A DNA stretch of 32,000 nucleotides from Candidatus Brocadia sp. (lineage in GTDB: Bacteria; Planctomycetota; Brocadiia; Brocadiales; Brocadiaceae): contig CP091279.1 of assembly GCA_021650915.1 (NCBI GenBank), positions 2,820,001 through 2,852,000 of the forward strand. Reading direction: 5' to 3'. The notes beneath the pieces were generated by a model, which saw nothing but the letters and a program-made list of their open reading frames with translations, ran no database searches and was not told the origin of the DNA. Below, piece after piece: positions 2,658-32,000 of the stretch. The number at the start of each line of letters is the position of its first letter. Positions within the stretch are counted from its first letter, which is position 1. A program made the translations under genes and the position numbers.

Positions 2658-3224
2658 ATGCACACCCCCGATTCGGTTATGCCTGAATTTCAGATGGCTA
2701 TGACGCCGCATCAGAATCTTGCTGATGTGTGCAATGTATTGATCAAAAAAGCGATAGAACTTGGCTGTGTGCAGGCGGCGGTTATTCATACCAACACCAT
2801 CAGTGTTGCTCGATGGGTCCAATTGAAATGCAAATACGGATGTGAAGCATACGGAAAAAAACTCACCTGTCCGCCCCACTCACCTTCGTTTGAAGAAATG
2901 AAAGAGATTCTCAGGGAATATACCCGGGCGCTGCTTCTCCGCGGACACCTGAGCTGGCAGATGCGGTATATCACGGCAGAAATCGAAAAGATGGCATTTT
3001 CCCTGGGCTTTTATAAAGCCTTTGGGCTGGGAGCAGGTCCTTGCAAATTATGCGAGGATTGCGATACCTCGCATGCCTGTGTTCGCACGACGGAAGCACG
3101 GCCTTCGATGGAGGCATGTGGTATCGACGTCTATCAAACGGTAAGAAACCATAATTTCAAAATTGAGACGCTGAAAAGCAAGGACGACGAAGTGAATATC
3201 TACGGTCTGATCTTACTGGAATAA
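2658..3224 (+). CDS. DUF2284-like predicted metal-binding protein (Cys-rich)
   Basis: The ORF track gives 2355..3224, but its first ~100 codons are antisense to radC. AGGAGA lies 7 nt upstream of the ATG at 2658. Cys motifs CKYGCEAYGKKLTCPP and CKLCEDC...C match my recollection of the DUF2284 family. Confidence 0.65.
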   Translation: MHTPDSVMPEFQMAMTPHQNLADVCNVLIKKAIELGCVQAAVIHTNTISVARWVQLKCKYGCEAYGKKLTCPPHSPSFEEMKEILREYTRALLLRGHLSWQMRYITAEIEKMAFSLGFYKAFGLGAGPCKLCEDCDTSHACVRTTEARPSMEACGIDVYQTVRNHNFKIETLKSKDDEVNIYGLILLE

Positions 3225-3242
3225 ATTTTCAAAGTTTATAAT

Positions 3243-3938
3243 TTGCTGAACAAATTACAAGCAACCTTAATGAAACAAAAATTAACCATCGCCTCATTGA
3301 TTAAAGAAGCAAAAGCATTTTGTGAACAGGAATCAAAATTTGATAATCGAGATCTATTTGGAATAACCGATGGTAAGGCTGTTGGCACATTCATAGAACA
3401 TAAATTCCAAGATTTCCTTTCTTCTAAATATGAATATATAATTGGTTCTTCAGCAAATGGAATTGATATGCCTTCCGAAGATTTAAATACTGATATAAAG
3501 GTAACATCTATCAAACAACCTCAATCTTCTTGTCCTTTCAGAAATGCAAGACAAAAAATATATGGTCTCGGATATAATTTATTGGTATTTGTCTATGATA
3601 AAAATGACGATCCAGTCACAAAGACAGCAAGGCTTAATTTTGTAAGTTGTTCATTTATTGACAAAAACAGAACTGCAGATTATCAAGTAACACGAACCAT
3701 CCGGCAAATGTTAGAAAATAATGCAAATGCCGACGATATTATTGCATATTTAACTGACAGAAATCTTCCCACCGACGAAATCACAATAAATCAACTGGCA
3801 GATGAGATATTACACACGAAACCAAAGCAAGGGTATTTAACGATATCGAATGCATTGCAATGGCGATTACAATATGGACGTATTGTAGAGCTAGTAGAAA
3901 ATGTAGATGGAATAATTCGCATAATCAGTAAAATATAA
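3243..3938 (+). CDS. Putative type II restriction endonuclease (PD-(D/E)XK fold candidate), family unassigned
   Basis: ORF in AT-rich DNA, ending 10 nt upstream of a DNA methyltransferase on the same strand. Candidate catalytic motif GIDMPSEDLNTDIKVTS (D ... D-x-K), preceded by a GK-x-x-G-x-x-x-E segment (TDGKAVGTFIEHKF) reminiscent of MutH/Sau3AI-type nucleases. The track start is TTG at 3243; ATG at 3270 (MKQKLT...) is an alternative. Confidence 0.5.
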   Translation: MLNKLQATLMKQKLTIASLIKEAKAFCEQESKFDNRDLFGITDGKAVGTFIEHKFQDFLSSKYEYIIGSSANGIDMPSEDLNTDIKVTSIKQPQSSCPFRNARQKIYGLGYNLLVFVYDKNDDPVTKTARLNFVSCSFIDKNRTADYQVTRTIRQMLENNANADDIIAYLTDRNLPTDEITINQLADEILHTKPKQGYLTISNALQWRLQYGRIVELVENVDGIIRIISKI

Positions 3939-3948
3939 ATATTATCAC

Positions 3949-5760: not shown

Positions 5761-5855
5761 TGGTATCTATTCTTGTAGAAATGGAAATTTCCTACCAACA
5801 AGTATCGTATCCTACTCATACATAAATTCCAGAACATTTTAGTAAGGGGAAAAAC

Positions 5856-6170
5856 ATGATGACAGATTTTATTAATAAGATGATCAACCTCGGCTTTGGG
5901 GCAGCGCTTCTTACGAAAGAGAATGTCGAAGAAGTCATTGACGAAATGGTAAAAAAAGGGGAGATTAAAAAAGACGAGGCAAAGGCGCGGGCAAGCGATC
6001 TCTTTAAAAAGGTGCTGTCAAGCAAACAGGAGATTGAATCAAAGATCGAAAAGATTGTGGAAAACGCTCTCCATAAGCTGGACATACCCACACGAAAAGA
6101 ACTCCAGGAGATGCAGAAAAAACTAGAAGAGGTTATAAAGAGGCTGGAATCGAGGGAAGACCTGACGTAA
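5856..6170 (+). CDS. Phasin-like small coiled-coil protein (COG3937-type)
   Basis: 104 aa, highly charged and helical, with N-terminus FINKMINLGFGAALLTKE..VEE.VDEMVKKGE typical of the phasin/PHA-regulator-like family. AAGGGGAAAAAC lies upstream of the ATG. The opposite-strand ORF 5816..6226 has a low-complexity Ser/Phe composition and was rejected. Confidence 0.55.
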   Translation: MMTDFINKMINLGFGAALLTKENVEEVIDEMVKKGEIKKDEAKARASDLFKKVLSSKQEIESKIEKIVENALHKLDIPTRKELQEMQKKLEEVIKRLESREDLT

Positions 6171-10334: not shown

Positions 10335-10346
10335 GACAAAAAGTGC

Positions 10347-10375
10347 TTGCAATAAAATACATAATTTAGTATATT
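10347..10375 (+). promoter_or_regulatory. Candidate sigma-70-type promoter for cmk-rpsA
   Basis: TTGCAA (10347-10352), a 17-nt spacer, then TATATT (10370-10375), about 65 nt upstream of the cmk start. This is pattern match only. Confidence 0.3.
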
Positions 10376-10440
10376 CAACCTTTTTGCATTCTCATACCTT
10401 AACGATGAGACGCTATTACCGGTAACGAAAGAGGTCTTGT

Positions 10441-11124
10441 TTGATAATAGCGATTGATGGTCCCGCTGGTTCCGGGAAAAGCACCATCGCCAGGATGCTG
10501 GCAAGGCGGCTGGGCTTTAACTATCTCGATACGGGAGCTATGTATCGGGCGCTTACGTGGAAGGCGTTACAGGACGGAGCAGACTTAACAGATGCAAACG
10601 CCTTATGCCAGCTGATGGACCAAACCGCCATCGAATTTCGGGGTAAGAACGATGGTATGCAAATATGGGTTGATGGGGTTAATGTAACGGAAAAAATCCG
10701 CGCACCCTCTGTAACCAACAACGTTCATTATATATCGAACGCATCCAGTGTCCGGCACCGTATGGTAAAACTCCAGCAAATGTTTGCGTCCGGAGGGAAT
10801 GTCATTGCAGAAGGGAGGGATATGGGTACCGTTGTCTTTCCGCATGCAGACAAGAAATTTTTTTTAGATGCTGAAATTGAGGAGCGTGCCCGGAGGCGGC
10901 ATGACGAGATGCGTCTGCCGGATGGCGAAATTTCGTATGCCGATGTGATGAAAGATATAGAAATACGTGACAAGCGGGATACGACGAGGGATAACTCTCC
11001 CCTCAGAAAGAGTGATGATGCAATTTACCTGAATACTACAAAAATGTCGATTGAAGAAGTGGTCGCTCGGATATTCGAAGAACTTGAGCCAGTGGTCAAA
11101 AAACTGGACGTTTATAAAGAGTGA
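10441..11124 (+). CDS. cmk: Cytidylate kinase
   Basis: TTG start. N-terminus IIAIDGPAGSGKSTIARMLA, YLDTGAMYRA and GRDMGTVVFP motifs, with the conserved cmk-rpsA gene order. Confidence 0.92.
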   Translation: MIIAIDGPAGSGKSTIARMLARRLGFNYLDTGAMYRALTWKALQDGADLTDANALCQLMDQTAIEFRGKNDGMQIWVDGVNVTEKIRAPSVTNNVHYISNASSVRHRMVKLQQMFASGGNVIAEGRDMGTVVFPHADKKFFLDAEIEERARRRHDEMRLPDGEISYADVMKDIEIRDKRDTTRDNSPLRKSDDAIYLNTTKMSIEEVVARIFEELEPVVKKLDVYKE

Positions 11125-11189
11125 GTAAACGTAATTTATTTTAAAAACCTTTTATTTTTTTCATTTTATTTCGGAGAAATCATCAAATT

Positions 11190-12941
11190 ATGGATCGGGA
11201 TATTTTAAAAGAGTACAATGTAAATTTAGCCGATATTGAGCGTGAGGTTGAAGCTATCGTTGGAAGCGAGGATACCAAAAAAAAGATAGAATCTACCTAC
11301 TATGATTCTATTCAGAATTTTGAGGTAGGCTCGGTTCTTAAGGGGCGTATTCTTAGTGCTCTTGGTGATAACATTGTCATAGACTGCGGATATAAATCCG
11401 AAGGTATGATACCCAAGCTTGAATTCGATGATCCTTCCGAGATAAAAATAGGTGAAGATGTTGAGGTCCTGTTGGAAGCAGTAGAGGACGATTCAGGACT
11501 TATTAAATTATCGAAGCGGAAAGCAGACCGCATTCGTGGCTGGGAAAGGGTTATTGCAAAATATAAAGAGGGCGATATCATCACTGGTCGGGTGACGAGA
11601 AAAATTAAAGGAGGCCTGCTCGTCGATATGGGGGTGCCAATATTTTTGCCTGCTTCCCAGATTGACGTAAAGCCGCCAGGCGATATTTCTCAATATATTG
11701 GACAGGAAGTCACCTGCCGAATACTAAAAATCGATGAGACTCGGCAAAATATTGTTGTTTCCAGAAGAAAGCTTATTGAGGAAGACCGCGACAAAAAGAA
11801 ACAAGGCCTGCTGTCGGAAATTGCTATCGGGCAGATCAGGAAAGGCGTGGTGAAAAATATCGCCGACTTTGGTGCATTCATTGATTTGGGTGGTCTGGAT
11901 GGACTTCTTCACATTACGGATATGAGTTGGGGAAGAATAAGCCATCCATCGGAAGTGCTTGCTATTGATGATGAGGTTGAGGTAATGATACTTGACATCG
12001 ACAAGGAAAAGGAAAAGGTCGCTCTTGGGTTAAAACAAAAGTCACCAAACCCGTGGTTACTCATCGAGGAAAAATACCCCGTTGGCTCCAAGGTAAAGGG
12101 CCAAGTCGTCAATATTATGTCGTATGGTGCATTTGTAAAACTGGAAACAGGTATCGAAGGTCTTGTGCATATTTCGGAGATGTCCTGGACCCGTCGCATT
12201 AACCACCCATCAGAAATGGTGGCGATCGGAGACATGGTAGAAGTTGTCGTTCTCAAAATTGATAAGGAAAAAGAAGAAATCTCACTCAGTATGAAACAGA
12301 CGGAAGTTAATCCGTGGACGGTTATTGAAGAAAAATATCCCGCAGGAACAAGAATCAAGGGACGCGTCCGGAACCTGACCAATTATGGCGCTTTCATTGA
12401 GATCGAAGAAGGGGTGGACGGCTTGCTCCATATTTCTGACATGTCGTGGGCAAAGAAGGTTGGACATCCTTCAGAAATTGTTAAAAAGGGAGATAAAATT
12501 GAAGCCGTGGTGCTTTCTGTTGACCGGGAAAAAAAGAGAGTTGCCTTGGGTCTCAAACAACTCTCCGATGATCCATGGGTAAAAGAGATTCCTGAAAAAT
12601 TTAAAGTAGGCGATGTCGTCTCCGGCAAGGTCACGAAATTGACCAACTTTGGCGCATTTCTTGAGCTTGGGAAAGGGATTGAAGGGCTGTTGCATATCTC
12701 GGAATTATCCAATGAAAAGGTGAATAATCCCGCGGATGTTGTCAATATTGGTGATGATCTGGAAGTAAGAGTTATTCGCATTGAACCGGAGGCAAGAAAG
12801 ATCGGGTTGAGCCTGAAAAAAATGATTGATGCAGAAGGGAAAAGTGCTGCGTCGTTGTCAAATGAAGATTCTCAAAAGCAGATAAACGGTGGTACTGTGA
12901 TTCGTGAAGGACAGGATTCTGACGCTGCAAGCGTATCGTGA
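11190..12941 (+). CDS. rpsA: 30S ribosomal protein S1 (six S1 domains)
   Basis: Repeated S1 OB-fold units (G.V..I..FGAF(I/V).L..G.(D/E)GLLHIS(D/E)(M/L)S) recur six times. GGAGAAAT lies upstream of the ATG. Confidence 0.95.
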   Translation: MDRDILKEYNVNLADIEREVEAIVGSEDTKKKIESTYYDSIQNFEVGSVLKGRILSALGDNIVIDCGYKSEGMIPKLEFDDPSEIKIGEDVEVLLEAVEDDSGLIKLSKRKADRIRGWERVIAKYKEGDIITGRVTRKIKGGLLVDMGVPIFLPASQIDVKPPGDISQYIGQEVTCRILKIDETRQNIVVSRRKLIEEDRDKKKQGLLSEIAIGQIRKGVVKNIADFGAFIDLGGLDGLLHITDMSWGRISHPSEVLAIDDEVEVMILDIDKEKEKVALGLKQKSPNPWLLIEEKYPVGSKVKGQVVNIMSYGAFVKLETGIEGLVHISEMSWTRRINHPSEMVAIGDMVEVVVLKIDKEKEEISLSMKQTEVNPWTVIEEKYPAGTRIKGRVRNLTNYGAFIEIEEGVDGLLHISDMSWAKKVGHPSEIVKKGDKIEAVVLSVDREKKRVALGLKQLSDDPWVKEIPEKFKVGDVVSGKVTKLTNFGAFLELGKGIEGLLHISELSNEKVNNPADVVNIGDDLEVRVIRIEPEARKIGLSLKKMIDAEGKSAASLSNEDSQKQINGGTVIREGQDSDAASVS

Positions 12942-19931: not shown

Positions 19932-21335
19932 TTAATAGGCATGTTTATTGATAAATCCATTCCACAGCGTCAGCCATATGATTTTCAGATCAAAATGGAG
20001 TGACCAGTTTTCAATATAATACAGATCGTATTCAATCCGCTTCTCCAACGAGGTATTTCCACGCCAGCCACTAACCTGCGCCCAGCCGGTAATTCCCGCC
20101 TTCATTTTGTGTCGTAACATATATTTTGGAATGGCATTTCTGAAATTGTTTATGAATACCGGCCGTTCCGGCCGCGGCCCGACAATACTCATATCGCCAC
20201 GGAGAACATTGAAAAACTGCGGGAGTTCGTCCAGGCTCGTCCTTCTCAGGAGTTTGCCTATTTTTGTGCACCGGGGATCGTCCCTCTTCGTCCATACGGG
20301 ACCGGATGCCACTTCAGCATCGACTTCCATCGTCCGGAATTTTATCATTTTAAAAATCTTGCCATCCATTCCCATTCGCTCCTGTTTAAAGAAGACCGGT
20401 CCATGGGAAGTTATCTTCGTGAGGAGCGAGATAACTCCGATGAGAGGAGCCGTGCAAATTAACATGATCGTGGCAACAACAATATCCAAAAGCCTTTTCA
20501 CGATGATATTCCATCCATAGAGCGGGGTATCACGAAGGCTAATAAGCGGCATGCCCTCAAACTCACTTACGCTGCCCCGTAAGGTAATAAACTCAAAGAG
20601 ATCGGGTAAAACCATGATGCTTACCATCTCGTCGCCAAGATAATCCAGAATTTCCTTCAATTGATTATGGGCATGAAAAGGCAATGCAACAAACACAATG
20701 TCAATGCCCAGCTTCACAACGAACGAACGGACATCGGAGTATTTTCCCAGCACGCGGATTCCATGCAAAGTATTTCCGATGCGGCTCGGATCATGTGTCA
20801 GGAAACCGGAAATCCGTATTCCAAGTTCCGGATGTTTCCGCAATTTTTTTACCAGGTCTTGCCCAAAATTTTCTGTGCCAAGAATCAATGCATATCTTTG
20901 GTTATATCCCTTTTGCCGTAAAAAGCGTAAAAATTCCCGAAATAAAATGCGAGTCAAACTAAGCGATAGAATATTGATGAGCCAGAAATAAAAGAACGTC
21001 AGTCGGGAAAAATCATATTGACGGAAGAGGAAGGTAAGTGAGATGAGGATGAGGGTGGCAAAAGTCGATGCCTTGGCAATATCTGCAACTTCAGAAAGCT
21101 TAGTCGAAACCCGGCGGGGTCGGTACAATCCAAATATCCGAAAAACTATCCCCCATAAAGGGATCATAAAAATGAGGAGGGTCAGGTATGTTTTAAAGGG
21201 GGGAATCCCTTTAAGAACAGGTACGATGCCCGAGTAAAAACGCAGATAATAAGCCAGCATCCAGGCGCCAGACAAGACGAGCCAATCGGTAAGAAGGAGT
21301 ACTGACTCAAAGAACTTGCTATGTTTCTTTAGCAT
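19932..21335 (-). CDS. Polyprenyl-phosphate glycosyl-1-phosphate transferase (WcaJ/EpsB-type priming sugar transferase)
   Basis: Four to five N-terminal TM helices, a central Rossmann-like region, and the C-terminal bacterial sugar transferase domain (KRLLDIVVA...GPVFFKQERMG..GK.FKMIKFRTM...DELPQFFNVLRGDMSIVGPRPERP). Confidence 0.9.
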   Translation of the reverse strand: MLKKHSKFFESVLLLTDWLVLSGAWMLAYYLRFYSGIVPVLKGIPPFKTYLTLLIFMIPLWGIVFRIFGLYRPRRVSTKLSEVADIAKASTFATLILISLTFLFRQYDFSRLTFFYFWLINILSLSLTRILFREFLRFLRQKGYNQRYALILGTENFGQDLVKKLRKHPELGIRISGFLTHDPSRIGNTLHGIRVLGKYSDVRSFVVKLGIDIVFVALPFHAHNQLKEILDYLGDEMVSIMVLPDLFEFITLRGSVSEFEGMPLISLRDTPLYGWNIIVKRLLDIVVATIMLICTAPLIGVISLLTKITSHGPVFFKQERMGMDGKIFKMIKFRTMEVDAEVASGPVWTKRDDPRCTKIGKLLRRTSLDELPQFFNVLRGDMSIVGPRPERPVFINNFRNAIPKYMLRHKMKAGITGWAQVSGWRGNTSLEKRIEYDLYYIENWSLHFDLKIIWLTLWNGFINKHAY

Positions 21336-21342
21336 AAATGCT

Positions 21343-21364
21343 TTTCAATAGTAACTATTCAGCG
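21343..21364. repeat. Left end of IS: 8-bp target-site duplication TTTCAATA (21343-21350) plus 14-bp IRL GTAACTATTCAGCG (21351-21364)
   Basis: Read directly from the sequence. IRL is the exact reverse complement of 23056-23069, and the flanking octamer is repeated in direct orientation at 23070-23077. Confidence 0.9.
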
Positions 21365-23069
21365 TAATATCGCCCCCTATCGTTACGAGCTGGCAAAATC
21401 AGGCAATTTGCCGCGAAATACCATCCGTAATGCCTGACTTAAATTTACCCCTTGTTTTCGACAAGTCGAGAGATAACTACGGATGAGGCAGAAGATCTTC
21501 GCTCCGTCCAGAGAACGAAAACAGCCCGATATCTTCTGCTGAACCTTCGTCATCCTGATATCGTTTTCGGCCAGGTTATTCGTGAAGGGGACGTTTTTAT
21601 TGTCCATAAATCTGAGCACATCACCCTCATACTCCCGTAATCGTTCCAGGAGATTCCGTGCTTTTGTCCTTTTTACCCGCCCTCTTTTCCCCTTACGGTT
21701 CGTTTCATCAGGGGGCGGGCTTTCAGCTTCTGCGTTTTGTAATATCCCCCGGTACCTTTGCCGGTATTTCTCAGACTCGCCGTTTTCCAACAAACCCCCC
21801 GCATCCTTTACCGCACGGTTTATCTCTTCGAGCAGGGCTTTCATCTCTTTCGCCCACGGTTGCTTCTTATCCTCTTCCCACACCCCCTCCAATTCCCTCA
21901 GGTGGTGTGCATTACAGAGCGCATGTGTACAGCGGGTGTAGGTGTAATACGCCTTCAAATGGTCGTGACAAAGAATCCCCCGAAACTGGGGCAGTATCCC
22001 GATACTATCCATCGCTTCCGTCCCACGTCTTTCGTGAGGGAAAAAGTGTGTCCACAAACTATTGGATGCACTATGCAGCCAATACCTGTCTCCGTTCTTG
22101 TTGATGCTCGTTTCATCTGCCTGCAATACCTCTGATTTGACAAGTTCTTCCTTGGTTTTCCCCTCGAAGGCTTCCAGAGATTCGTAGGCATCCTTGTTAA
22201 AGTTGTAAAGAGAGCCTTCGCTCAGCGGTATCCCCATCTGCTCCTCAAAATACTCCTGGATCCTCTTATTGGGTATCAATTGATACTGTGACATATATAC
22301 TGCGTGCGCTTTCAAATCCGGCCCATACTGCACTGCCTTTGTCACCCCTTCCGGAAATGACGCTACAAACCTACTTCCCTCCGCATCCTCAACTATCTCT
22401 GCCCGATACTCCGTTACCACCCTTGAAATCTTCATATCAAACACCTGACGCGACTCATAACCGATCAACCTGTATTTGCCGCTCGGATACTTCCTCCGGT
22501 CTACTTTTATTACTTCCACCTTATCAGGATTGGCTACCTTTTTCAGCGTTACTCCATCATGACCCTCTTGCCCACCTGCCTTCCTCTCTCCTTTCGCCCT
22601 GCTCTTTCTCGTGCGATTCGGATCGCTTGCGGGCGGCTTACTACTGTTGCGACTGTTCCGGTTCAGACGTCCTACCAGCAGCGTTATCACTAACACCAAC
22701 AACTCTATCATTGACCTTATGGCAGGTGACAGACCTTTTTCCTCTGAAAGCAGCTTTTCTACTTTCCGCAGCGTTGCATCTATATCTATATTCTCTATCG
22801 TCAATGGATGGCACCGGTATTAATAGCCTGAAATCATCTCCTGCGGCTATTATACCACAGGCTTTTTCACCCATTTTTTTCACCCTCTACCGCCCTACAA
22901 AACTCTGTAATTCTCTGGCCGAACATACCCCACACCTCTCTTTGCAAAAACCTCCGATGGGCTACAGTGGCATCCTCCACAGCCATTTATTCTACCAACC
23001 AATTCTACGGCCCCCTTTTCTCATGTTGACTGTCAACTAAATTCTAAAATATTTTCGCTGAATAGTTAC
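21351..23069 (-). mobile_element. IS66-family insertion sequence (single-ORF, ISBst12-like), 1719 bp, apparently intact
   Basis: Perfect 14-bp terminal inverted repeats beginning 5'-GTAA (an IS66-family hallmark), an 8-bp direct target duplication TTTCAATA (the IS66-family TSD length), and one full-length transposase ORF. Confidence 0.9.
21383..22804 (-). CDS. IS66-family transposase (TnpC-type DDE)
   Basis: N-terminal leucine-zipper-like helix; basic linker NSSKPPASDP; DDE-region motifs LQADETSINKNG, ILCHDHLKAY and LCNAHHLRELE; C-terminal FTNNLAENDIRMTKVQQKISGCFRS. All are typical of IS66/ISBst12-group transposases. Confidence 0.9.
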   Translation of the reverse strand: MTIENIDIDATLRKVEKLLSEEKGLSPAIRSMIELLVLVITLLVGRLNRNSRNSSKPPASDPNRTRKSRAKGERKAGGQEGHDGVTLKKVANPDKVEVIKVDRRKYPSGKYRLIGYESRQVFDMKISRVVTEYRAEIVEDAEGSRFVASFPEGVTKAVQYGPDLKAHAVYMSQYQLIPNKRIQEYFEEQMGIPLSEGSLYNFNKDAYESLEAFEGKTKEELVKSEVLQADETSINKNGDRYWLHSASNSLWTHFFPHERRGTEAMDSIGILPQFRGILCHDHLKAYYTYTRCTHALCNAHHLRELEGVWEEDKKQPWAKEMKALLEEINRAVKDAGGLLENGESEKYRQRYRGILQNAEAESPPPDETNRKGKRGRVKRTKARNLLERLREYEGDVLRFMDNKNVPFTNNLAENDIRMTKVQQKISGCFRSLDGAKIFCLIRSYLSTCRKQGVNLSQALRMVFRGKLPDFASS

Positions 23070-24207
23070 TTTCAATATATTGTTTAAATTTTTCTTTAAA
23101 TATTGAACGATCGAAGTTTTCCGCATGTTTTCGAATTAAGCGCGGATCAAAAAGGTTTGTCCTTTGTTCAAAAAACCGCACCGCTTCCATTAATGACCCT
23201 GGAGTTTGTTTTGTAAAAAATACTCCTGTGGGTGATTCCGAATCTATCAGGGTCTTTGCCGCAGGTGACTCGCGGGGAGAAGGATACACTCCATGAACCG
23301 TTTCCAGTGCACCGCCCCTGGCAAAGGCAATTACCGGCTTTCCGCAGGCTTGTGCCTCTAAAGGGACGATGCCGAAGTCTTCTTCTCCGGGAAAGATCAA
23401 CGCTTTGCATCCCCGATAATACTCCCTCAATGATTCACTGGATTGCCATCCGATACATTGTACATGCTTTTTTGCCATCTTTCTGATCCGCCGTTCTTCC
23501 TGGCCTTCTCCGATCAGAATAAGCGGCAGGCCCATTCTTTCAAACGCTTCTATCGCAATGTCGATTCTCTTATAGGGGGCAAATGCCGATACGAGCAAAT
23601 AATAGTTTCCTTCTTTATAATTTTCCTGAGGTGTATAAAGCGAGCAATCCACGGGTGGGTGGATCACTTCTGCCAATCTTTTATAATACTTTTTTATCCG
23701 GTTTGCAACATGATAGGAGTTTGCTACAAAGTAATCCACCCGTTCACTGGAAGTAACGTCCCACATTCGTAAATAATGGGCAACAGGCGGCATCAAAACC
23801 TTTGAAATCAGTCCCTTTTGACCCGCACCAAAATACGTTTGATATTGGTCCCATACATATCGCATGGGAGTATGGCAATAACATACATGGACCGCCGTTG
23901 CAGAGGTGAGAATGCCCTTTGCCACACAGTGACTGCTGGACAGAACCAAATCGTATGCACCCATATCGAATCCTTCAATGGCCAAAGGAAACAACATCAG
24001 AAAAGATCTGTAATGCCTCTTAGTCAAAGGTATTTTCTGAAGGAAAGAGGTTTGTATATTCCTTTCCTCGATGATCTTTGAAACGCTGCCTCGGAGATGG
24101 ATTAAGGTAAAAACATCTGCATCTGGAAAGATCTCGCAGAATATCTCTAAAACCTTCTCTCCGCCGCGCATTCCGGTAAGCCAGTCGTGAACAATTGCTA
24201 CCCGCAC
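23044..24207 (-). CDS. GT4-family glycosyltransferase (Glycos_transf_1); 3' end rewritten by the IS insertion
   Basis: GT-B fold signatures: N-terminal MRVAIVHDWLTGMRGGEKV and E-x7-E region EEDFGIVPLEAQACGKPVIAFARGGALETV. The last 8 codons plus stop (SNYSAKIF*) are encoded by the IS right end (23044-23069). Confidence 0.85.
   Translation of the reverse strand: MRVAIVHDWLTGMRGGEKVLEIFCEIFPDADVFTLIHLRGSVSKIIEERNIQTSFLQKIPLTKRHYRSFLMLFPLAIEGFDMGAYDLVLSSSHCVAKGILTSATAVHVCYCHTPMRYVWDQYQTYFGAGQKGLISKVLMPPVAHYLRMWDVTSSERVDYFVANSYHVANRIKKYYKRLAEVIHPPVDCSLYTPQENYKEGNYYLLVSAFAPYKRIDIAIEAFERMGLPLILIGEGQEERRIRKMAKKHVQCIGWQSSESLREYYRGCKALIFPGEEDFGIVPLEAQACGKPVIAFARGGALETVHGVYPSPRESPAAKTLIDSESPTGVFFTKQTPGSLMEAVRFFEQRTNLFDPRLIRKHAENFDRSIFKEKFKQYIESNYSAKIF
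23056..23077. repeat. Right end of IS: 14-bp IRR CGCTGAATAGTTAC (23056-23069) plus 8-bp target-site duplication TTTCAATA (23070-23077)
   Basis: Read directly from the sequence. See the left-end entry. Confidence 0.9.
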
Positions 24208-24817: not shown

Positions 24818-25041
24818 ACTCTGCCTGCAGCCATGAAACAAAAACCTCCAGTACCGTATCAGATATTTCTCCTGAATCTTTTTCTTCCTGCTATCGTTCA
24901 TACTTGCTTCTGTATGTCCTTTTTACAAGGGCTTTTTTGATTATGCGTTTGCTGCTCCGGAGAGCAGAGCGAGAGCCCTTGTTATAAACGAGGAAATGGA
25001 AGCGTGTTTTCTGCGAGGAATAAAACCGAGAAAGGGATATG

Positions 25042-26238
25042 TTACCTTGCCGGGCTGGCCGTCAGGGATGCAGCGAAGTCGTATCCAAAGATGGAACACT
25101 TTTTCAGATCTTCCGCGGTTGGTGTCAAAAGGGCCTTTATGGGCGGCTGGACAATCGTGAGTTTGAGACCCCTCAGCCGTTCTTCCAGGAGTCTTGTTGC
25201 CTCACCGCTCCATCCATAGGCACCAAAAGTGGCACATTTCTTAAGCTTTACGTTGACGCTAAACATGACATTGAGAATGTCCCACAGGGGCTTTAGTGCA
25301 TCGCCATTTATAGTCGACGAGCCCATCAGAATGCCATCGGCAGATTCAATCTCGCATCGCATGGATTCCGGCGATACGGTGGTAGCGTCAAAGAGTTTTA
25401 CCTCGGTATTTACCGTAGTGGCACCCTTTGCGACTGCCTCGGCCATCTTTCTCGTATTTCCGTACATTGATGCATAAAAGACCAAAATCAGTTTTTTGTA
25501 AGGGTCTTTTCTTGCCGTGCTCCAGTCTTTATAGGCATGAATGTATTTCCAGGGATCCGTCCGCAGGATGGGGCCGTGACTTGGGGCAATGAGGCGAATA
25601 TCCATGTCTTTTATCTTTTCTATTGCCTCAAGAATCTTTTTCCGATAAGGGCCCATGACGTGCTCAAAATAATAGCGGAAATCTTCCGTAAAGTCATCAA
25701 CCCGGTCATCAAAGAGCCGTTCATCACAAAAATGGGTCGCAAAACCATCACACGGAAAGAGTACGCGATCTTCTGCCAGGTAGGTAAACATCGTATCAGG
25801 CCAATGCCAGTACGGTGCATGGATAAACCGTAATTGCTTATTGCCCAGGCTAATAGTTTCTCCGTCTTCTACCATCCTTCCCTGAACATCCCTGTGTAAA
25901 ATATTTTTCAGAAAGAGGGCTGCCGTCCTTGTGGCCAGGATTTGGGCGTTTGGCGCTTCTTTTAAAAGCATGTCCAGCGCCCCGGTATGATCCATTTCGG
26001 CGTGATTTACCACAATATAGCAAATGTCATTGAGATTAATTAACGACCGGAGTTTTTCAAGATGTTCCTGGGCAAACTTTTCGTGCACACAATCAATGAG
26101 GGTAGGTTTGTCTGCAAGGATAAGATAGGAATTATAAGTGCTCCCAAACCGGGTTTGAAATACCACGTCAAATACCCGGAGGGTTGCATTTAATGCCCCA
26201 ACCCAATGAACGTTTTTGATGATTTCCAAGGTTTGCAT
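25042..26238 (-). CDS. Flavodiiron protein (FprA/ROO-type A-type flavoprotein; O2/NO reductase)
   Basis: Metallo-beta-lactamase-like diiron motif VVNHAEMDHTGAL (H-x-E-x-D-H) and C-terminal flavodoxin domain ILVFYASMYGNTRKMAE...GSSTINGD. The start is set at MQTLEIIKNVHWVG (ATG 26236-26238), the typical FDP N-terminus. The track ORF extends to 26322. Confidence 0.9.
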   Translation of the reverse strand: MQTLEIIKNVHWVGALNATLRVFDVVFQTRFGSTYNSYLILADKPTLIDCVHEKFAQEHLEKLRSLINLNDICYIVVNHAEMDHTGALDMLLKEAPNAQILATRTAALFLKNILHRDVQGRMVEDGETISLGNKQLRFIHAPYWHWPDTMFTYLAEDRVLFPCDGFATHFCDERLFDDRVDDFTEDFRYYFEHVMGPYRKKILEAIEKIKDMDIRLIAPSHGPILRTDPWKYIHAYKDWSTARKDPYKKLILVFYASMYGNTRKMAEAVAKGATTVNTEVKLFDATTVSPESMRCEIESADGILMGSSTINGDALKPLWDILNVMFSVNVKLKKCATFGAYGWSGEATRLLEERLRGLKLTIVQPPIKALLTPTAEDLKKCSIFGYDFAASLTASPAR

Positions 26239-26376
26239 AGGATCGTTATTGCCATATCGGAAATAAGGTTCAGTATGGCAGAAATACCAAACAAGAAATT
26301 CCAGATTTCTCAGCCGTTTCAATGCCGATTTCTTTCATTGAAGCGTATCAGGAATCTGGCGATTGTGATGATGGAT

Positions 26377-26868
26377 TTACACAACAGCCTTCTTCTTTTT
26401 TACAAAATTCATCAATCCCCCGGCTTGAATAATCTCTTGCATCTCCTGGGGAAAAGGTTCGAATTTAAACCGTTTTTTTGAAGTGTTATTCAGGATTTCT
26501 CCGGAGTTAAGGTTGACCTCGATCTCATCTCCTTCCCGGATCTGCTCTGCTGCCTCTGGACATTCAAAAATGGGCAGACCAATGTTAATGGCATTCCGAA
26601 AGAAGATACGGGCAAAGGACTTTGCAATAACACAGGAAATCCGCGCAGCCTTGATGGCAATGGGGGCGTGCTCGCGGGAGGAGCCACACCCAAAATTATC
26701 TCCTGCGACAATAATATCGCCCACGTTAATCTTCTTCATAAAATCCGGATCGGCATCCTCCATACAGTGAGCCGCCAGCTCTTTTGTATCGGTGGTATTT
26801 AGATACCGTGCAGGGATGATTTCATCCGTATTGATGTTGTTTCCGAATTTCCAGCAAGTGCCTTTCAT
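26377..26868 (-). CDS. leuD: Aconitase-family dehydratase small subunit (LeuD type 2 / HacB-like)
   Basis: 163 aa. Motifs NINTDEIIPARYL, GDNFGCGSSREHAP and ARIFFRNAINIGLP. AAGGA lies 5 nt upstream of the ATG. Confidence 0.85.
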   Translation of the reverse strand: MKGTCWKFGNNINTDEIIPARYLNTTDTKELAAHCMEDADPDFMKKINVGDIIVAGDNFGCGSSREHAPIAIKAARISCVIAKSFARIFFRNAINIGLPIFECPEAAEQIREGDEIEVNLNSGEILNNTSKKRFKFEPFPQEMQEIIQAGGLMNFVKKKKAVV

Positions 26869-26912
26869 CGTATCCTTATGGTATCGTGTTGATACACATC
26901 CTCTTTTGTCCT

Positions 26913-29900
26913 TTATCTTTCCCTTCCTGCTACCAATTCCCGAGTGCTTTCAGCGCCTTTTTGTCTATAGCTTGTTGCCACATGTTTTTTGTGCAACCTG
27001 CCTTCCATCCTTTGATATGCCTGGTGCATAAAAGCCTCCAGCCGGGTTTCCTCGTTTGACTGCTCCTGGCCGTCAAATGACAACTTGAGACACGGCATGC
27101 CGTAAAAATCTTTTTGAAACCTTTCAAGCACGCCATTGACCACCGTCCCCGGCATGCAGTGAAAGGGAAGAACGTTGATCAAGCCGTCAAATCCTTCCTC
27201 AACATACTCAATTGCCTTGCCTAAACTGAGTACCGGATCGCCTTTGTAAGAATCGTCGATATACGCTTTCCCCTTTTTGATAAGCTCTTTAATTGATGCC
27301 TCTTTCGGGAAATGCCTGATGCTTCCCTTAAACACCTTTGTGAGCTTATAGGCATCATATCTCTGAACAACATCTGAAATGATTTCACCAAAAAGTCCCT
27401 TATAATCCTTTTCAAAGCGACATGATTCCCTACGACAGTGTGCAATATAATTAATCCATTCAGAAAAAGGCGGGATAAATGCCTCTCCTCCCAACTTTTC
27501 GATGCTTCTGGCAAGAAAATTGTTTGCAAACTCATTGCATCGGACATAGGTCTCCCCAATGATTCCGATTAATGGCCTGGGCTTGCTCCGGTCTATCTTT
27601 ATCTTTGCAAACGCACGGTTGGCCTCGCGGGCAAATTCGACTAAATTCTGATGTTTTTCAAGCGCAACTTCAGCCTTTTCCAAATACTTATCATAGAGGG
27701 CGTCTGTTTCCCCTTTGTGCAATTCATAAGGTCTTGTCTCTCTCTGTAATTTTTGCAGAAGATCAGTATACATAATGCCATTCCATGCCAGTTTACGAAA
27801 ATGGGTGCCGAGGTTTTTCGTATCTTCATCATAGTTCTCTCCCTGATCCATGGTATAGAGAGGCACATGGGGAAGTCCAAGATCATCGAGCACCATCCGT
27901 TGAAATTTATTGTACTGACCAAACCGGCAGGGGCCGGATGCCGTGGCCATAAAGAAGGCGCTTGCCTCGGGGTCAAAATCAGGGCTCATCGCCTTTTTCA
28001 CGATATCTCCGGTGGTAAGAATCGCCGGGTAACATTCCTTCCCTGAAGTGAATTTTCGTCCAATATCCACCGACTGTTTATTTGCCATGGGCAATGCCTC
28101 CGCCAGCACCCCGTTAGCCCTCATGGAGGCAGCAATCATCTTGCCGTGGTCACACATATAGGGGATGTATATCGTGCGTTTCTTTTTCTCTGCCAAGGTG
28201 CGAATTGGCACATCGTCTCTCAATTTTTTTCGTTCAACAGACGGTTTGACATTTTTCAGACTGTCAATGAATGCCTCGCACCGGGTGATCGCCCCAACAT
28301 CTGAACTATGCTCGTCAATCTCTATGGTTAAACAGGGTTTCCCGCCAAGTTCCTTGGCAAAGAACTTGGATATAAAGGAGTCCGGACCACAGCCGAAATT
28401 CGTGATGTATAACGGATAGAGTCTCTTGTCTCTTGCTATTATCCTGGCTGCAGCGAGGAATTTTTGCCCGGTCTTCCAGTACATATTCGGGTAATCCTGG
28501 GCTACCTCTTCGATATCCAGCGTCAGAAAGTCAAGCGGGATGGTCAGGATGCCCAAATCGCGCAATTTTTCCGGAAGCCCCAGGTTCATGCCCGTATCGC
28601 AGCCGTTATAGGACCGGCTGATCAGCACAAAGGCCTTTTCATTTTCCCCTAATTTTTCCAGAATCTCCCTTCCCCTTACTTCAAGTGTTTTGTTGAAAGT
28701 CTGCAGCGCCTCATGTGCAGACCTTATGGCCGTTTCAGCAACTGCCCCCGTTCTTCCCATGCTCCTTGCAAGGTCACGCAGGGTTTTATTAAGATACTCT
28801 TCCCCGTATTCAAAATGGATGACGGGCGACAACACCTCAAACTTCTTTTCCGTAAAATCGATTGCCGAACGGACAAGATACGGTATGCACTGTACATACG
28901 GACACGCATATGAGTGCGTAAGTTTCTGGCTGCTGTGCGTTAAATTAATCACGCTGGGCAGGAACAGATAATCAATATTCCGTTCAAGCATATCGATGAC
29001 ATGGCCGTGCGCAACCTTGATGGGAAAGCAGGTTTCTGCGGTAATCACTTCCACCCCGTTATAGATAATGTCCTTATTGGTATCGCTGGATGTAATTACC
29101 TCAAAACCGAGTTCGGTGAAGAATGCCTTCCACATCGGGTAGAAATCGTAAAAAGTGGAAACCTGCGGTATCCCGACCTTTTTCCCAACTGGTTGATCGG
29201 GTTTGTTTTTCTTGTAGGTATTGAACAGGGAGTCCTTCCTCTCGCGAAAGAGTCTGGGGAGGTGCTTTCCCTTTTTCAGCGTCCTTTCATCATCAAATTT
29301 ACCGCAGCGGCTTCCATAATGGAGTGGGTTTTCTCCATCGATGGTAACCTTTCTGATCTCGCATATATTTGAACAGTCCTTGCAAACAAAGGAAGACAGT
29401 TCATACCGCTTATGCCGGAGGTCAAAACCCTTGAAGCGCGATTTTTCCCACGTCCTTTCCTCCATGGCAATAATCGCAGACCCGATGGCGCCCATGATGT
29501 CGTGATGGGGCGGAACCATGATCGTTTTCCCGGTTACCTTTTCAAATGCAGCTTTTACCCCTCGATTGGCGGCCACTCCTCCCTGAAAGAAAATGGTGTT
29601 TCCGATTTTTCTGTCTTCTACGACCCGGTTAATAAAGTTTAACACAACGGAATAGCTTAGTCCTGCAAGCAGGTCATCTTTGGCCGTCCCGCGCTGCTGA
29701 TGATGGTTCAGGTCGGATTCCATAAATACGGTGCAACGCTCGCCAAGATGAGAAGGGCAGCATGACGAAAGCGCGCGTTTGCTGAATTCCCCTTTGATGC
29801 TCACGCTCAGCTTTTCTGCCTGCTCTTCCAGAAATGAGCCGGTTCCTGCGGCGCACACTTTATTCATGGCAAAGTCCACGATCGCCCCGTTTTCCAGACG

Positions 29901-31187
29901 GATAAACTTGGAATCCTGTCCGCCGATCTCAAAGATGGTGTCTACGCTCTTGTCTACCGTTGCAGCGGCGGTTGCATGGGCGGTAATTTCATTTTTCGCT
30001 ATATCAGCGCCAATAAAATCCCCCGTTAAGTAGCGCCCTGAACCTGTCGTTCCTGCGCCACAGATGATCACCTTGTCTCCCACTTCCAGACCAACCTCAT
30101 ACAACCCTTGTTTTACGGCCTCAAGCGGTCTTCCTGCAGTCATAAGATAGCGTCTCGCCAGCACATTCTTATGCTTGTCGACCACAACGATGTTGGTGCT
30201 GATCGACCCCACGTCGACTCCCACATATGCCTCAATCTTTTCATCGCCAGCGATCACATGCGTTTTTTCAACAATTTTATAATTATCCGACTGAAGGGGT
30301 TCCAGGTTTGAAGGCTTTGCGCCACGATTTCTTAAATATTCTTCAACCTCTTTTAAACCCCGGAAGGGTGAATGGATGCCTTTGTCGATCAGGGTAAACA
30401 CCGTGCCGATTGCTCCCATAACATTAAAATATTTTGGTATCAGGAGTTCGCCTGGTTTGAGTTCCAGGATATCCTCAAAGGCCTTGATCATACCAACGTT
30501 TGCCGCCACACCACCCTGGAAAACAATGGGCTTGGAAAATTCCTTTCCCTTGCCGATATTGCTCTTGAAATTTCTGGCCATAGCATAACAGAGGCCGGCC
30601 ACGATATCATGCACGGGTGTGCCTTCCTGTTGCAGATGAATCATATCGGTTTTGGCAAAGACACTGCATCGTCCGGCTATCCGGGGAGGGTTTTTAGATT
30701 TTAGCGCAAGATCTCCGAATTCCTTTTCAATAGCAATGCCTAGCCGTGTGGCCTGCTGATCCAAAAATGATCCCGTCCCTGCGGCACACATGGTATTCAT
30801 GGAAAAATCGGAAACCTTGGTTTGCCCTGAGGCTGCATCCCTCTCGATCAGCATAAGCTTTGAGTCTTCACCGCCAATTTCAATGATGGTGTGCACTTCA
30901 GGGTATAAGGTTGTTGTTGCCTGACTATGGGCAACAACCTCGTTGACAAAGGCAATGTTCATTAATTCAGAGACAAGCTTGCCGCCAGAACCGGTAATCG
31001 CTATTCCATCAATATCATCAATATGGGTTCGATTGAAGATGTCTCGTAAGACGAGGATGAGTATTTCTACCGGTTGCCCGTGTGAGCGGACATAGTGATT
31101 TTCCAGAATTTCCTTATGCCCGTTGACCAATACCGCCTTTACGCTTACAGAGCCAATATCAAGTCCTATATATTTTTTCTGAGACAT
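26913..31187 (-). CDS. 1424-aa fusion: two BcrAD/BadFG/HgdC-type activase ATPase domains plus two DUF2229 (dehydratase-component-like) domains
   Basis: ATPase domain 1: YIGLDIGSVSVKAV, NTMCAAGTGSFLDQQA, AGRCSVFAKTD. ATPase domain 2: YVGVDVGSISTNIVVV, NKVCAAGTGSFLEEQA, GERCTVFMESD. The paired Cys are those that ligate the bridging [4Fe-4S] cluster in HgdC-type activases. A Cys-rich linker CKDCSNICEIRKV...GSRCGKFD follows, then a long C-terminal region typical of 'CoA-substrate-specific enzyme activase' fusion proteins. GGAGAAAG lies upstream of the ATG. Confidence 0.9.
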   Translation of the reverse strand: MSQKKYIGLDIGSVSVKAVLVNGHKEILENHYVRSHGQPVEILILVLRDIFNRTHIDDIDGIAITGSGGKLVSELMNIAFVNEVVAHSQATTTLYPEVHTIIEIGGEDSKLMLIERDAASGQTKVSDFSMNTMCAAGTGSFLDQQATRLGIAIEKEFGDLALKSKNPPRIAGRCSVFAKTDMIHLQQEGTPVHDIVAGLCYAMARNFKSNIGKGKEFSKPIVFQGGVAANVGMIKAFEDILELKPGELLIPKYFNVMGAIGTVFTLIDKGIHSPFRGLKEVEEYLRNRGAKPSNLEPLQSDNYKIVEKTHVIAGDEKIEAYVGVDVGSISTNIVVVDKHKNVLARRYLMTAGRPLEAVKQGLYEVGLEVGDKVIICGAGTTGSGRYLTGDFIGADIAKNEITAHATAAATVDKSVDTIFEIGGQDSKFIRLENGAIVDFAMNKVCAAGTGSFLEEQAEKLSVSIKGEFSKRALSSCCPSHLGERCTVFMESDLNHHQQRGTAKDDLLAGLSYSVVLNFINRVVEDRKIGNTIFFQGGVAANRGVKAAFEKVTGKTIMVPPHHDIMGAIGSAIIAMEERTWEKSRFKGFDLRHKRYELSSFVCKDCSNICEIRKVTIDGENPLHYGSRCGKFDDERTLKKGKHLPRLFRERKDSLFNTYKKNKPDQPVGKKVGIPQVSTFYDFYPMWKAFFTELGFEVITSSDTNKDIIYNGVEVITAETCFPIKVAHGHVIDMLERNIDYLFLPSVINLTHSSQKLTHSYACPYVQCIPYLVRSAIDFTEKKFEVLSPVIHFEYGEEYLNKTLRDLARSMGRTGAVAETAIRSAHEALQTFNKTLEVRGREILEKLGENEKAFVLISRSYNGCDTGMNLGLPEKLRDLGILTIPLDFLTLDIEEVAQDYPNMYWKTGQKFLAAARIIARDKRLYPLYITNFGCGPDSFISKFFAKELGGKPCLTIEIDEHSSDVGAITRCEAFIDSLKNVKPSVERKKLRDDVPIRTLAEKKKRTIYIPYMCDHGKMIAASMRANGVLAEALPMANKQSVDIGRKFTSGKECYPAILTTGDIVKKAMSPDFDPEASAFFMATASGPCRFGQYNKFQRMVLDDLGLPHVPLYTMDQGENYDEDTKNLGTHFRKLAWNGIMYTDLLQKLQRETRPYELHKGETDALYDKYLEKAEVALEKHQNLVEFAREANRAFAKIKIDRSKPRPLIGIIGETYVRCNEFANNFLARSIEKLGGEAFIPPFSEWINYIAHCRRESCRFEKDYKGLFGEIISDVVQRYDAYKLTKVFKGSIRHFPKEASIKELIKKGKAYIDDSYKGDPVLSLGKAIEYVEEGFDGLINVLPFHCMPGTVVNGVLERFQKDFYGMPCLKLSFDGQEQSNEETRLEAFMHQAYQRMEGRLHKKHVATSYRQKGAESTRELVAGRER

Positions 31188-31207
31188 GGTTTAACTCGCT
31201 TTCTCCA

Positions 31208-32000
31208 TCAATTCTTCATAATTTCATCCGGTGGCGTAATCTTTCCCGTAATTGCAGACGCAGCCGCAACGGCGGGACTGCAGAGATAAATCTCACTTTT
31301 CGGGTGCCCCATGCGGCCAACAAAATTACGGTTGGTCGTGGAAAGCGCCCGCTCTCCCTCCGCTAAAATTCCCATATGGCCGCCGAGACATGGCCCGCAT
31401 GTTGGGGTAGAGACGACCGCCTCAGCGTCAATAAATATCTCGATTAATCCTTCTTGTATTGCCTGCTTGTAAATTTCCTGAGTTGCTGGGAAAATGATGA
31501 GACGAAGGGCGGGATGCACCTTTTTCCCTTTCAGAAATCTTGCGGCGATTCTGAGGTCTGAAATCCGTCCATTGGTACAAGAGCCGATCACTACCTGATC
31601 AATCTTGATCCCCGAAACCTCTTCCACGGGTTTTGTGTTTTCCGGCAAGCTGGGAAGGGCTACCTGAGGCGAGATTTCATCAGCATGAAATTCATAGGTC
31701 TTTGCGTAGGTGCAGCCGGGATCGCTGTGGTACATGATGGGTTTTCTCCGGAATCTGCTTTTAATATAGTCTTCCGTATTTTTATCGGGGGCGATGATGC
31801 CGCTCTTTGCCCCCGCTTCGATGGCCATATTGCAGATGGCAAAACGATCGTCCATGGGTAAATTTGATATAGCGCTGCCGGTAAACTCCATCGCCTTGTA
31901 GAGGGCGCCATCCACGCCGATCTTCCCAATCGTGTAAAGGATTAAATCCTTCCCGGATGTCCAGTTTTTTACCTTGCCATGAAAAACAAATTTGATCGAT
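31208..32000 (-). CDS. leuC: Aconitase-family dehydratase large subunit (LeuC type 2 / HacA-like), 5'-truncated by window edge
   Basis: [4Fe-4S] ligand motifs [10 protein letters not shown] and [10 protein letters not shown], plus NRNFVGRMG. The frame stays open upstream of the track's GTG (31915) to the window end (..[38 protein letters not shown]..). Confidence 0.88.

Follow-up and report, generated by a model that had tools for sequence, protein, structure and literature searches.

A putative ether-lipid synthase gene between leuC and leuD in Candidatus Brocadia and other members of the class Brocadiia

Layout of the locus

A 32,000-nucleotide (nt) stretch of the Candidatus Brocadia sp. 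genome (contig CP091279.1, positions 2,820,001 to 2,852,000), referred to below as the window, was analysed with respect to a gene encoding a 1424-amino-acid (aa) protein that lies between the genes for the two subunits of an isopropylmalate/citramalate isomerase. From position 25042 to 32000 the minus strand carries four collinear genes: a leuC-like gene, the 1424-aa open reading frame (ORF), a leuD-like gene and a flavodiiron protein gene (Table 1). It is likely that the 1424-aa protein belongs, as a self-contained enzyme in a single chain, to the PlsA-PlsR/Ger branch of the benzoyl-CoA reductase / 2-hydroxyacyl-CoA dehydratase (BCR/HAD) superfamily, and that its gene, called ger here, was inserted into an ordinary leuCD operon early in the Brocadiia and has since been inherited vertically.

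The gene order, the two short intergenic gaps and the motifs quoted within them in a preliminary description of this DNA were all reproduced from the ORFs. The leuC frame gave a Pfam Aconitase match, and in three public Candidatus Brocadia assemblies, each 100% identical to window positions 25000-32000, this gene is complete. The leuD and flavodiiron genes are separated by 138 nt, given the ATG chosen in public gene calls. A simple scan of the minus strand in the leuC-ger and ger-leuD gaps returned no promoter-like or terminator-like site, and an Rfam scan of the window and of locus L081, which comes from an identical strain, found no leader, T-box or riboswitch by the operon. We infer that ger is co-transcribed with leuC and leuD.

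Table 1. Features of the leuC-ger-leuD region and a separate RNA gene cluster (window coordinates).
Feature	Position	Strand	Remarks
leuC	31208..32000	-	Last 263 codons of a 420-aa isopropylmalate/citramalate isomerase large subunit; 5' end past the window edge, frame open to 32000
leuC-ger spacer	31188..31207	-	20 nt, TGGAGAAAGCGAGTTAAACC, with GGAG inside
ger/plsAR-type gene	26913..31187	-	4275 nt, 1424 aa; ATP-dependent reductase of the BCR/HAD family in one chain, putatively turning glycerolipid esters into ethers
ATPase (activase) domain 1	30372..31169	-	aa 7-272; cluster cysteines C134, C174; PDB match to HadI activator 4eht over aa 7-272
ATPase (activase) domain 2	29454..30224	-	aa 322-578; cluster cysteines C445, C485; PDB matches to MbdQ 9gai_D and HgdC 1hux
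Cys4 ribbon	29304..29384	-	C602-x2-C605-x3-C609 ... C628; lies between ATPase and reductase halves; all four cysteines invariant (71/71)
Reductase module 1	28224..29270	-	Includes Pfam DUF2229; fold matches DCCP 7yyl/6eno and BzdNO 8s02_B
Reductase module 2	27003..28190	-	Divergent duplicate of module 1, without Pfam match; C1052, C1087 and C1344 invariant
ger-leuD spacer	26869..26912	-	44 nt, ending ...CATAAGGATACG; AAGGA 4 nt ahead of the ATG
leuD	26377..26868	-	163-aa isopropylmalate/citramalate isomerase small subunit
Flavodiiron protein gene	25042..26238	-	Metallo-beta-lactamase-like and flavodoxin domains; downstream of leuD
Large signal recognition particle RNA (bacterial), tRNA-Ser(GGA), tRNA-Ser(CGA), tRNA-Arg(ACG)	212-479, 494-586, 837-928, 1470-1543	-	Ordinary RNA gene cluster; 169.8 bits for the large RNA

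Domains and family of the 1424-aa protein

The N-terminal half of the protein consists of two ATPase domains, detected by Pfam as two BcrAD_BadFG (PF01869) stretches (252 bits) and by NCBIfam as two copies of the TIGR00241 acyl-CoA dehydratase activase domain (291 bits). The first carries the motifs DIGS (residue 10), GGEDSK (105), CAAGTG (134), RCSVF (173) and QGGVA (224), and the second carries DVGS (325), GGQDSK (422), CAAGTG (445), RCTVF (484) and QGGVA (535); both keep the phosphate and adenosine motifs of the ASKHA fold. A sequence search of the PDB matched these domains to the solved structures of MbdQ/MbdP, HgdC, HadI and DCCP-R (7yyl_E), the ATPase of the double-cubane cluster protein (DCCP). 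The CAAGTG and RC(S/T)VF cysteines that the preliminary description had pointed out in both domains are indeed there, and all four (C134, C174, C445 and C485) are invariant in 71 of 71 aligned homologues. By analogy with HgdC-type activators, the two domains would form an intramolecular pseudo-dimer that binds a single [4Fe-4S] cluster through these four residues.

Between the two halves lies the Cys4 ribbon, which we infer to bind a metal or a cluster, although the structural model has a predicted local distance difference test score (pLDDT) of only 52-65 there. Directly after the ATPase pair Pfam places DUF2229 (PF09989; aa 670-887, 211 bits), the sole copy that it finds, and the last 535 residues (aa 890-1424) have no Pfam match even at E <= 10. 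Of the module 1 cysteines, C720, C762 and C933 are invariant, C970 is present in 70 of the 71 homologues and C863 in 67. When aa 640-988 were aligned with aa 1000-1395 using hhalign, a collinear match of 289 columns was obtained (E 0.0015, with a probability of only 16.8%), in which ETCFPIK pairs with KECYPAI, CPYVQ with CRFGQ, FGCGPD with FHCMPG and TRCEAF with TRLEAF. An AlphaFold2 model of the C-terminal 824 residues (mean pLDDT 83) was compared with solved structures using Foldseek; the top matches were to DCCP (7yyl and 6eno; E 9e-7), with further matches to the catalytic subunits of benzoyl-CoA reductase (8s02_B, BzdNO) and 3-methylbenzoyl-CoA reductase (9g87_B, MbdON), all at probability 1.0 and each spanning about 430 alignment columns or roughly half of the model. 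The large protein is thus a four-module, single-chain enzyme of the BCR/HAD type, composed of an ATPase pair and a catalytic pair. Two DUF2229 domains had originally been described; Pfam recognizes one, and the second is the divergent module seen by hhalign and by fold, so that the description was right in substance. ATP hydrolysis would push low-potential electrons from the ATPase half to the two C-terminal DCCP/BCR-like modules, which have invariant cysteines of their own.

Several known systems work by related principles. DCCP and DCCP-R of Carboxydothermus hydrogenoformans share with the window protein the logic of ATP-driven electron injection, but they are separate subunits with only 14-16% identity to it, a different cysteine pattern and small-molecule substrates in vitro. 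Class I benzoyl-CoA reductases (BzdNOPQ, MbdONQP; 8s02, 9g87, 9gai) and 2-hydroxyacyl-CoA dehydratases (HgdC 1hux, HadI 4eht) have in common with it the ASKHA pair, the CAAGTG/RC(S/T)VF cysteines of the bridging cluster and a catalytic pair of related modules, whereas they are heteromeric, unfused and act on CoA thioesters.

The closest likeness in architecture is to enzymes that make ether lipids. Heterologous expression has shown that the plasmalogen synthase PlsA-PlsR and the glycerol ester reductase Ger form ether lipids by themselves (PMC13159169, PMC12838417, PMC9702350). Both the plsA-plsR pair of Clostridium perfringens (CPE1194-1195, Q8XL48/Q8XL47) and the single fused plsA of Enterococcus (E. 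faecalis EF1327, Q835P9), Lactococcus and Bifidobacterium produce plasmalogens from diacyl lipids, and the E. faecalis gene and other single-gene plsA have been cloned in E. coli as a means of producing plasmalogens recombinantly. PlsA, which occurs as a fused form of about 1415 aa in many species, is an oxygen-sensitive Fe-S enzyme acting on diacyl glycerolipids, and it uses the same BCR/HAD-derived ATPase-plus-reductase machinery as the window protein. The product of PlsA-PlsR is an alk-1'-enyl (vinyl) ether, whereas anammox bacteria have been described with alkyl ethers. The genetic context also differs from that of the window, since in facultative anaerobes plsA lies downstream of a TetR-like regulator gene and is under a putative O2-sensing regulator.

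Ger is the former 'modified PlsA' of Thermotoga maritima and Desulfatibacillum alkenivorans (Sahonero-Canavesi et al. 2022, PMC13159169). Expressed singly in anaerobic E. coli, the T. maritima protein Tmari_0479 and the D. alkenivorans protein SHJ90043 each yielded 1-alkyl glycerol ethers (PMC13159169). Like the window protein, these are single polypeptides in which PF09989 and another region of reductase type come after two PF01869 domains. The two PF01869 domains and PF09989 make up the 'BBD' core of Ger, the same core as in the window protein, and the C-terminal part varies among confirmed producers (PMC13159169). The hosts of Ger are strict anaerobes, as Brocadia is, with saturated alkyl glycerol ethers in place of plasmalogens. 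At present Ger and PlsA are inseparable by sequence, and the presence of a Ger homologue and of ether lipids do not always coincide (PMC13159169). A published sequence criterion for the family is similarity to a characterised member at E <= 1e-50 with a coverage of at least 30%.

The link from these enzymes to the anammox bacteria passes through Candidatus Kuenenia stuttgartiensis, for which a 'modified plsA' homologue was reported from PSI-BLAST searches with Q8XL48, Q8XL47 and Q835P9 as queries (PMC8788747); that group also lists Ger homologues in Brocadiia. Over 98% of the query, the window protein shares 81% identity with the K. stuttgartiensis protein P0022, and it is 100% identical to an entry named 'CoA activase [Candidatus Brocadia sp.]'. 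A search with the reductase half alone returned 1038 representative clusters at E <= 1e-30, many of them fusions of about 1400 aa and others proteins of about 800 aa; the ten cluster representatives that were looked up were all unnamed proteins or proteins from metagenome-assembled genomes (MAGs), from Aminicenantes, Elusimicrobia and Acetothermia. Neither the sequence search of solved structures, in which only the ATPase domains had hits, nor the fold search turned up a PlsA or Ger structure. The protein is assigned to the family because its architecture, its fold and the literature chain through the Kuenenia homologue agree. The statement in the preliminary description that this fusion family has no established function is therefore out of date, as PlsA-PlsR and Ger have been characterised by expression and the Kuenenia homologue is in print.

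The chemistry proposed for the family is that the ester is reduced in two one-electron steps, then protonated and dehydrated (PMC8788747). Judging from the characterised relatives, the C-terminal modules of the window protein would reduce and dehydrate the ester carbonyl of a membrane glycerolipid to an alkenyl ether, and then possibly to an alkyl ether. The host is itself an anaerobe from a clade that bears ether lipids, as the hosts of the PlsA/Ger family are expected to be. In anammox ladderane lipids the linkage is mostly ether at sn-2, and either ether or ester at sn-1 (PMC2911534). In anammox bacteria the enzyme would probably serve to form the ether bonds found in ladderanes and in other glycerol ether lipids.

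In a MAG labelled Pseudomonadota (L074, 4907-5947), gpsA, the gene for NAD-dependent glycerol-3-phosphate dehydrogenase, ends about 33 nt ahead of the ger homologue, a position that fits a glycerolipid role.

LeuCD and the descent of the leuC-ger-leuD arrangement

The genes on either side of ger were compared with models of isopropylmalate isomerase subunits. LeuD scored 253.8 bits against the TIGR02084 equivalog model (cut-off 245.85), and LeuC in full length, taken from the identical strain (L081, 8718-9980), scored 694.5 bits against TIGR02083 (cut-off 610.65). The partial LeuC in the window contains GSCTNGR and TPTCGPCLG, whose cysteines we take, from aconitase-family knowledge, to be the three [4Fe-4S] ligands. 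The nearest solved relative of LeuD was the isopropylmalate/citramalate isomerase small subunit of Methanocaldococcus jannaschii (M. jannaschii; 3vba, 214.7 bits), followed by a homoaconitase (2pkp, 166 bits). The substrate-specificity loop of the window's LeuD, ARYLNTTD, reads YLNT where the M. jannaschii isomerase has YLVY and homoaconitase has YLRT. A search for LeuD paralogues or named outgroups returned solely orthologues, at >=68% identity. Two contigs found through close LeuD relatives (L086 and L087, one of them labelled Planctomycetes) carry a zinc-ribbon ORF followed by directly adjacent leuC and leuD; these unsplit pairs share the ARYLNT(T/S)D loop and have practically the same family scores as the Brocadia pair. 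The Brocadia proteins are 69.5-73% (LeuC) and 71-73% (LeuD) identical to them, and LeuC of distant split loci is just as similar to the Brocadia protein (70.6%). The citramalate route to isoleucine is known to use LeuCD. In tracer work Kuenenia was found to synthesize leucine de novo and to obtain isoleucine through citramalate, and a dual role of LeuCD in the two pathways fits these data.

By these sequence comparisons the flanking LeuCD is an ordinary housekeeping isopropylmalate/citramalate isomerase, and nothing marks it as a diverged paralogue. The loop that the preliminary description had proposed to inspect does differ from those of the M. jannaschii isomerase and homoaconitase, but unsplit leuCD pairs share it. 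What departs from the usual LeuCD is the distance of 4.3 kb between the two genes. In the window the 4275-nt ger separates leuC from leuD, and the two are likewise split in 50 related loci; their adjacency is a habit of the family and not a functional requirement.

In 42 of the 80 loci described below, as in both unsplit contigs, leuC is preceded by an acidic ORF of 102-105 aa that has two CxxC pairs (MVHYTCDMCG...DLCTKCHKKY). In L081 it lies at 8315-8623, about 90 nt upstream of leuC and just beyond the window edge, and it is also found at 6313-6624 in L085, 5408-5725 in L086 and 5401-5712 in L087. No significant Pfam family was found for it; in these planctomycetes it resembles a small, conserved zinc-ribbon protein that would act as partner or regulator of the leuCD operon.

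In order to determine how widely the arrangement is conserved, as the preliminary description had proposed, a genome collection was scanned for ger homologues and the 80 resulting loci were searched by tblastn with the LeuC, LeuD and flavodiiron proteins of the window. Both leuC upstream and leuD downstream of the ger homologue were found at 50 of the 80 loci. These span the class Brocadiia, from Brocadia, Jettenia, Kuenenia, Loosdrechtia and Scalindua to deeper 'Brocadiia' MAGs, where identity to the window protein falls to about 53%. The arrangement is no chance peculiarity of this one genome. A further 12 loci had one flank only, which a contig end explains in eight cases and an assembly defect in two, leaving L063 and L073 as loci truly without leuC upstream. 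Outside the triplet the neighbouring genes differ among Brocadia, Scalindua and a distant Brocadiia contig, and the flavodiiron gene is a neighbour in Brocadiaceae only, being found neither in Scalindua nor in the more distant Brocadiia. Neither leuC nor leuD lies near the homologues of 50-56% identity that are labelled Anaerolineales, Dehalococcoidales, Phycisphaerae and Pseudomonadota; gpsA is directly upstream of one of them, and an aminotransferase gene is downstream of two. Pairwise identities of LeuC and Ger were strongly correlated (r = 0.977; 49 loci, 1176 pairs), which fits one old insertion followed by vertical descent. Neighbour-joining trees of Ger and of LeuC were too weak at depth to tell whether the unsplit relatives are an outgroup or lost the gene secondarily.

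The junctions themselves vary. Among the relatives the leuC-ger gap ranges from 13 to 845 nt and the ger-leuD gap from -32 (an overlap) to 763 nt; in the distant clade both are tight (13-47 nt, and -4 to 38 nt), and in several Brocadiaceae gaps reach 680-845 nt with unrelated selfish genes inside. Two leuC-ger spacers (L017 ~138-976 and L044 ~5183-6000) contain a MazE/AbrB-like antitoxin gene and a PIN toxin gene on the same strand at a GC content of 0.31-0.33, and two others (L027 ~5322-6000 and L037 ~5320-6000) contain a same-strand gene for a 202-204-aa Uma2 endonuclease. The leuC-ger junction accepts passengers. At two Brocadiaceae loci, L020 and L035, the ger homologue (84% identity) has no leuC upstream. 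In L035, whose flanks are complete, leuD is missing downstream as well, and ger is bordered by a multihaem gene of hydroxylamine-oxidoreductase-like type and by a radical SAM gene (3886-5733 and 10338-11342); the downstream sequence of L020 is too short to judge, and in the sister locus L021 leuD is still downstream of ger. Two candidate properties of the unit were rejected: translational coupling by tight spacing as a conserved trait, given gaps of -32 to 845 nt, and membership of the flavodiiron gene, the adjacency of which is confined to Brocadiaceae.

Elsewhere in the window, an IS66-family element of 1719 nt that has an 8-bp target duplication (~21351-23069; transposase ORF 21383-22804 on the minus strand) has inserted where a GT4 glycosyltransferase gene (23044-24207) meets a Bac_transf sugar transferase gene (19932-21335). 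Assembly L082 lacks the element but is otherwise near-identical, so the insertion is recent and strain-level. Positions 3001-6000 form a low-GC island (0.35, as against about 0.47 around it) with an N6 DNA methylase-like ORF (3949-5760) and an unassigned 231-aa ORF (3243-3938), which is probably a restriction-modification or mobile island.

Interpretation of the arrangement

The preliminary description had offered three explanations for the gene order, namely an activase serving the LeuCD cluster, a LeuCD paralogue working with the fusion protein outside leucine synthesis, and a fortuitous insertion. The last of these fits best, with the qualification that the insertion is ancient, fixed and vertically inherited. 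The insertion of ger between leuC and leuD would date from an early member of the Brocadiia, and the gene would since have been carried along as a passenger of the leuCD operon, its product having no mechanistic dealings with LeuC or LeuD. Its persistence amid reshuffled outer flanks would be explained because a gene lying between two subunit genes that depend on co-expression is hard to remove harmlessly. The position of ger inside leuCD appears to be specific to Brocadiia, and a literature search found no mention of it. It seems a modest new observation, the components and the anammox homologue being already known.

Several points weigh against this interpretation. The triplet has been kept while the outer flanks were shuffled, down to about 51% Ger identity, a pattern that usually signals selection on a gene cluster. 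In the deep-branching loci L063 (5923-10693) and L073 (2756-7451), ger overlaps leuD by 32 and 8 nt, respectively, with no leuC upstream, so the ger-leuD half-junction can survive without leuC. On the side of the enzyme, the family link is drawn from architecture, fold and the two-step literature chain via Kuenenia, and not from aligning the protein with a characterised PlsA, PlsR or Ger. Ger is also described with small PF06050 (HGD-D) and PF09989 pieces in its C-terminal third; Pfam detected none in aa 890-1424 of the window protein (E <= 10), although PF06050 is on record for many of its close homologues. Activity has been demonstrated for Ger, whereas the Brocadiia members are known from their genes alone; characterised Ger is moreover specific for sn-1, whereas the hallmark ether of anammox lipids is at sn-2, so by this analogy neither the product nor the glycerol position is fixed.

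The main rival explanation is that the arrangement has been selected as a regulatory coupling. An oxygen-sensitive ether-lipid synthase and an oxygen-labile Fe-S dehydratase would be co-transcribed, tying membrane remodelling to growth or anoxia without physical contact between the proteins, and in Brocadiaceae an O2/NO-scavenging flavodiiron protein would have been added to the unit. This is possible but, in our judgement, unlikely. The constancy of the triplet against differing outer flanks in Brocadia, Scalindua and the distant Brocadiia contig speaks for it, as do the very tight gaps of the distant clade, the lack of promoter-like or terminator-like sites in the gaps of the window, the ger-leuD overlap kept in L063 and L073, and the putative O2-sensing regulator of characterised plsA in facultative anaerobes. 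It is opposed by the gaps of 680-845 nt with selfish genes in several Brocadiaceae, by L020 and L035, where ger is found without leuC upstream (and in L035 without leuD as well), and by the family-specific adjacency of the flavodiiron gene. A gene between co-expressed subunit genes would also stay put without any selection on its own position. Class-wide retention of ger in leuCD and the ger-leuD overlaps might alternatively reflect a real partnership, through co-translational assembly or through an ATP-driven half that keeps the oxygen-labile LeuCD cluster reduced or repaired in these slow-growing anaerobes, with the Brocadiia enzyme, as a separate and more modest matter, perhaps forming the sn-2 ether of ladderanes, whose catalyst has long been sought; we regard this combination as quite improbable. 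If it were true, the enzyme would attack sn-2, a position attacked by no characterised Ger or PlsA.

The substrate could also be something other than a glycerolipid, for instance a small molecule, the protein being a BCR/HAD/DCCP-type reductase that resembles PlsA and Ger only at the level of the family. The best solved matches are indeed DCCP and benzoyl-CoA reductase subunits with no lipid enzyme among them, Ger and PlsA cannot be separated by sequence, and Ger homologues are not always matched by ether lipids. We nevertheless hold this to be improbable, given that a single chain of about 1400 aa with a 'BBD plus second module' layout is the architecture of the characterised lipid enzymes, that the Kuenenia homologue was retrieved with characterised proteins as queries, and that the host clade is rich in ether lipids. 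The notion that the double ATPase is an archerase serving the flanking LeuCD, whose [4Fe-4S] cluster it would maintain or reactivate by reduction, draws on the conserved adjacency and on both partners being Fe-S proteins, and on nothing else. The cluster of aconitase-type enzymes is not a redox catalyst, which counts against such a service. The ATPases are covalently tied to acceptor modules of their own, which carry at least ten invariant cysteines; members of the family function alone in E. coli; close homologues, at 50-56% identity, occur without leuCD nearby; and LeuCD pairs with equal scores and the same loop are contiguous, without ger between them, in related contigs. It is very hard to credit on this evidence. 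Scarcely any likelier is a neofunctionalised LeuCD paralogue that acts with the fusion protein in a non-leucine pathway, such as the supply of branched primers for unusual lipids. The YLNT loop and the fact that leuA and leuB are not adjacent would agree with it, but both subunits score above the isopropylmalate isomerase equivalog cut-offs and are orthologous to contiguous pairs, the loop occurs in those unsplit pairs too, no extra divergence from the unsplit orthologues is seen, and Kuenenia requires the isomerase activity for leucine and isoleucine. The locus therefore does not bear out the suggestion of an undescribed functional module, as it shows neither a new kind of Fe-S machinery nor a new enzyme partnership.

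With ger read as a vertically inherited passenger of an ordinary leuCD operon, the locus is a clean and datable case of a large, unrelated gene that came to lie between housekeeping subunit genes and was kept across a bacterial class, and it warns against equating a tight operon neighbourhood with a functional partnership. The triplet could act as a synteny marker for Brocadiia. For the biology of the anammox bacteria, ger is an obvious candidate for the formation of the ether bonds of ladderane and other glycerolipids, and the Brocadiia clade would be a good place to ask whether the Ger family acts at sn-2 as well as at sn-1.

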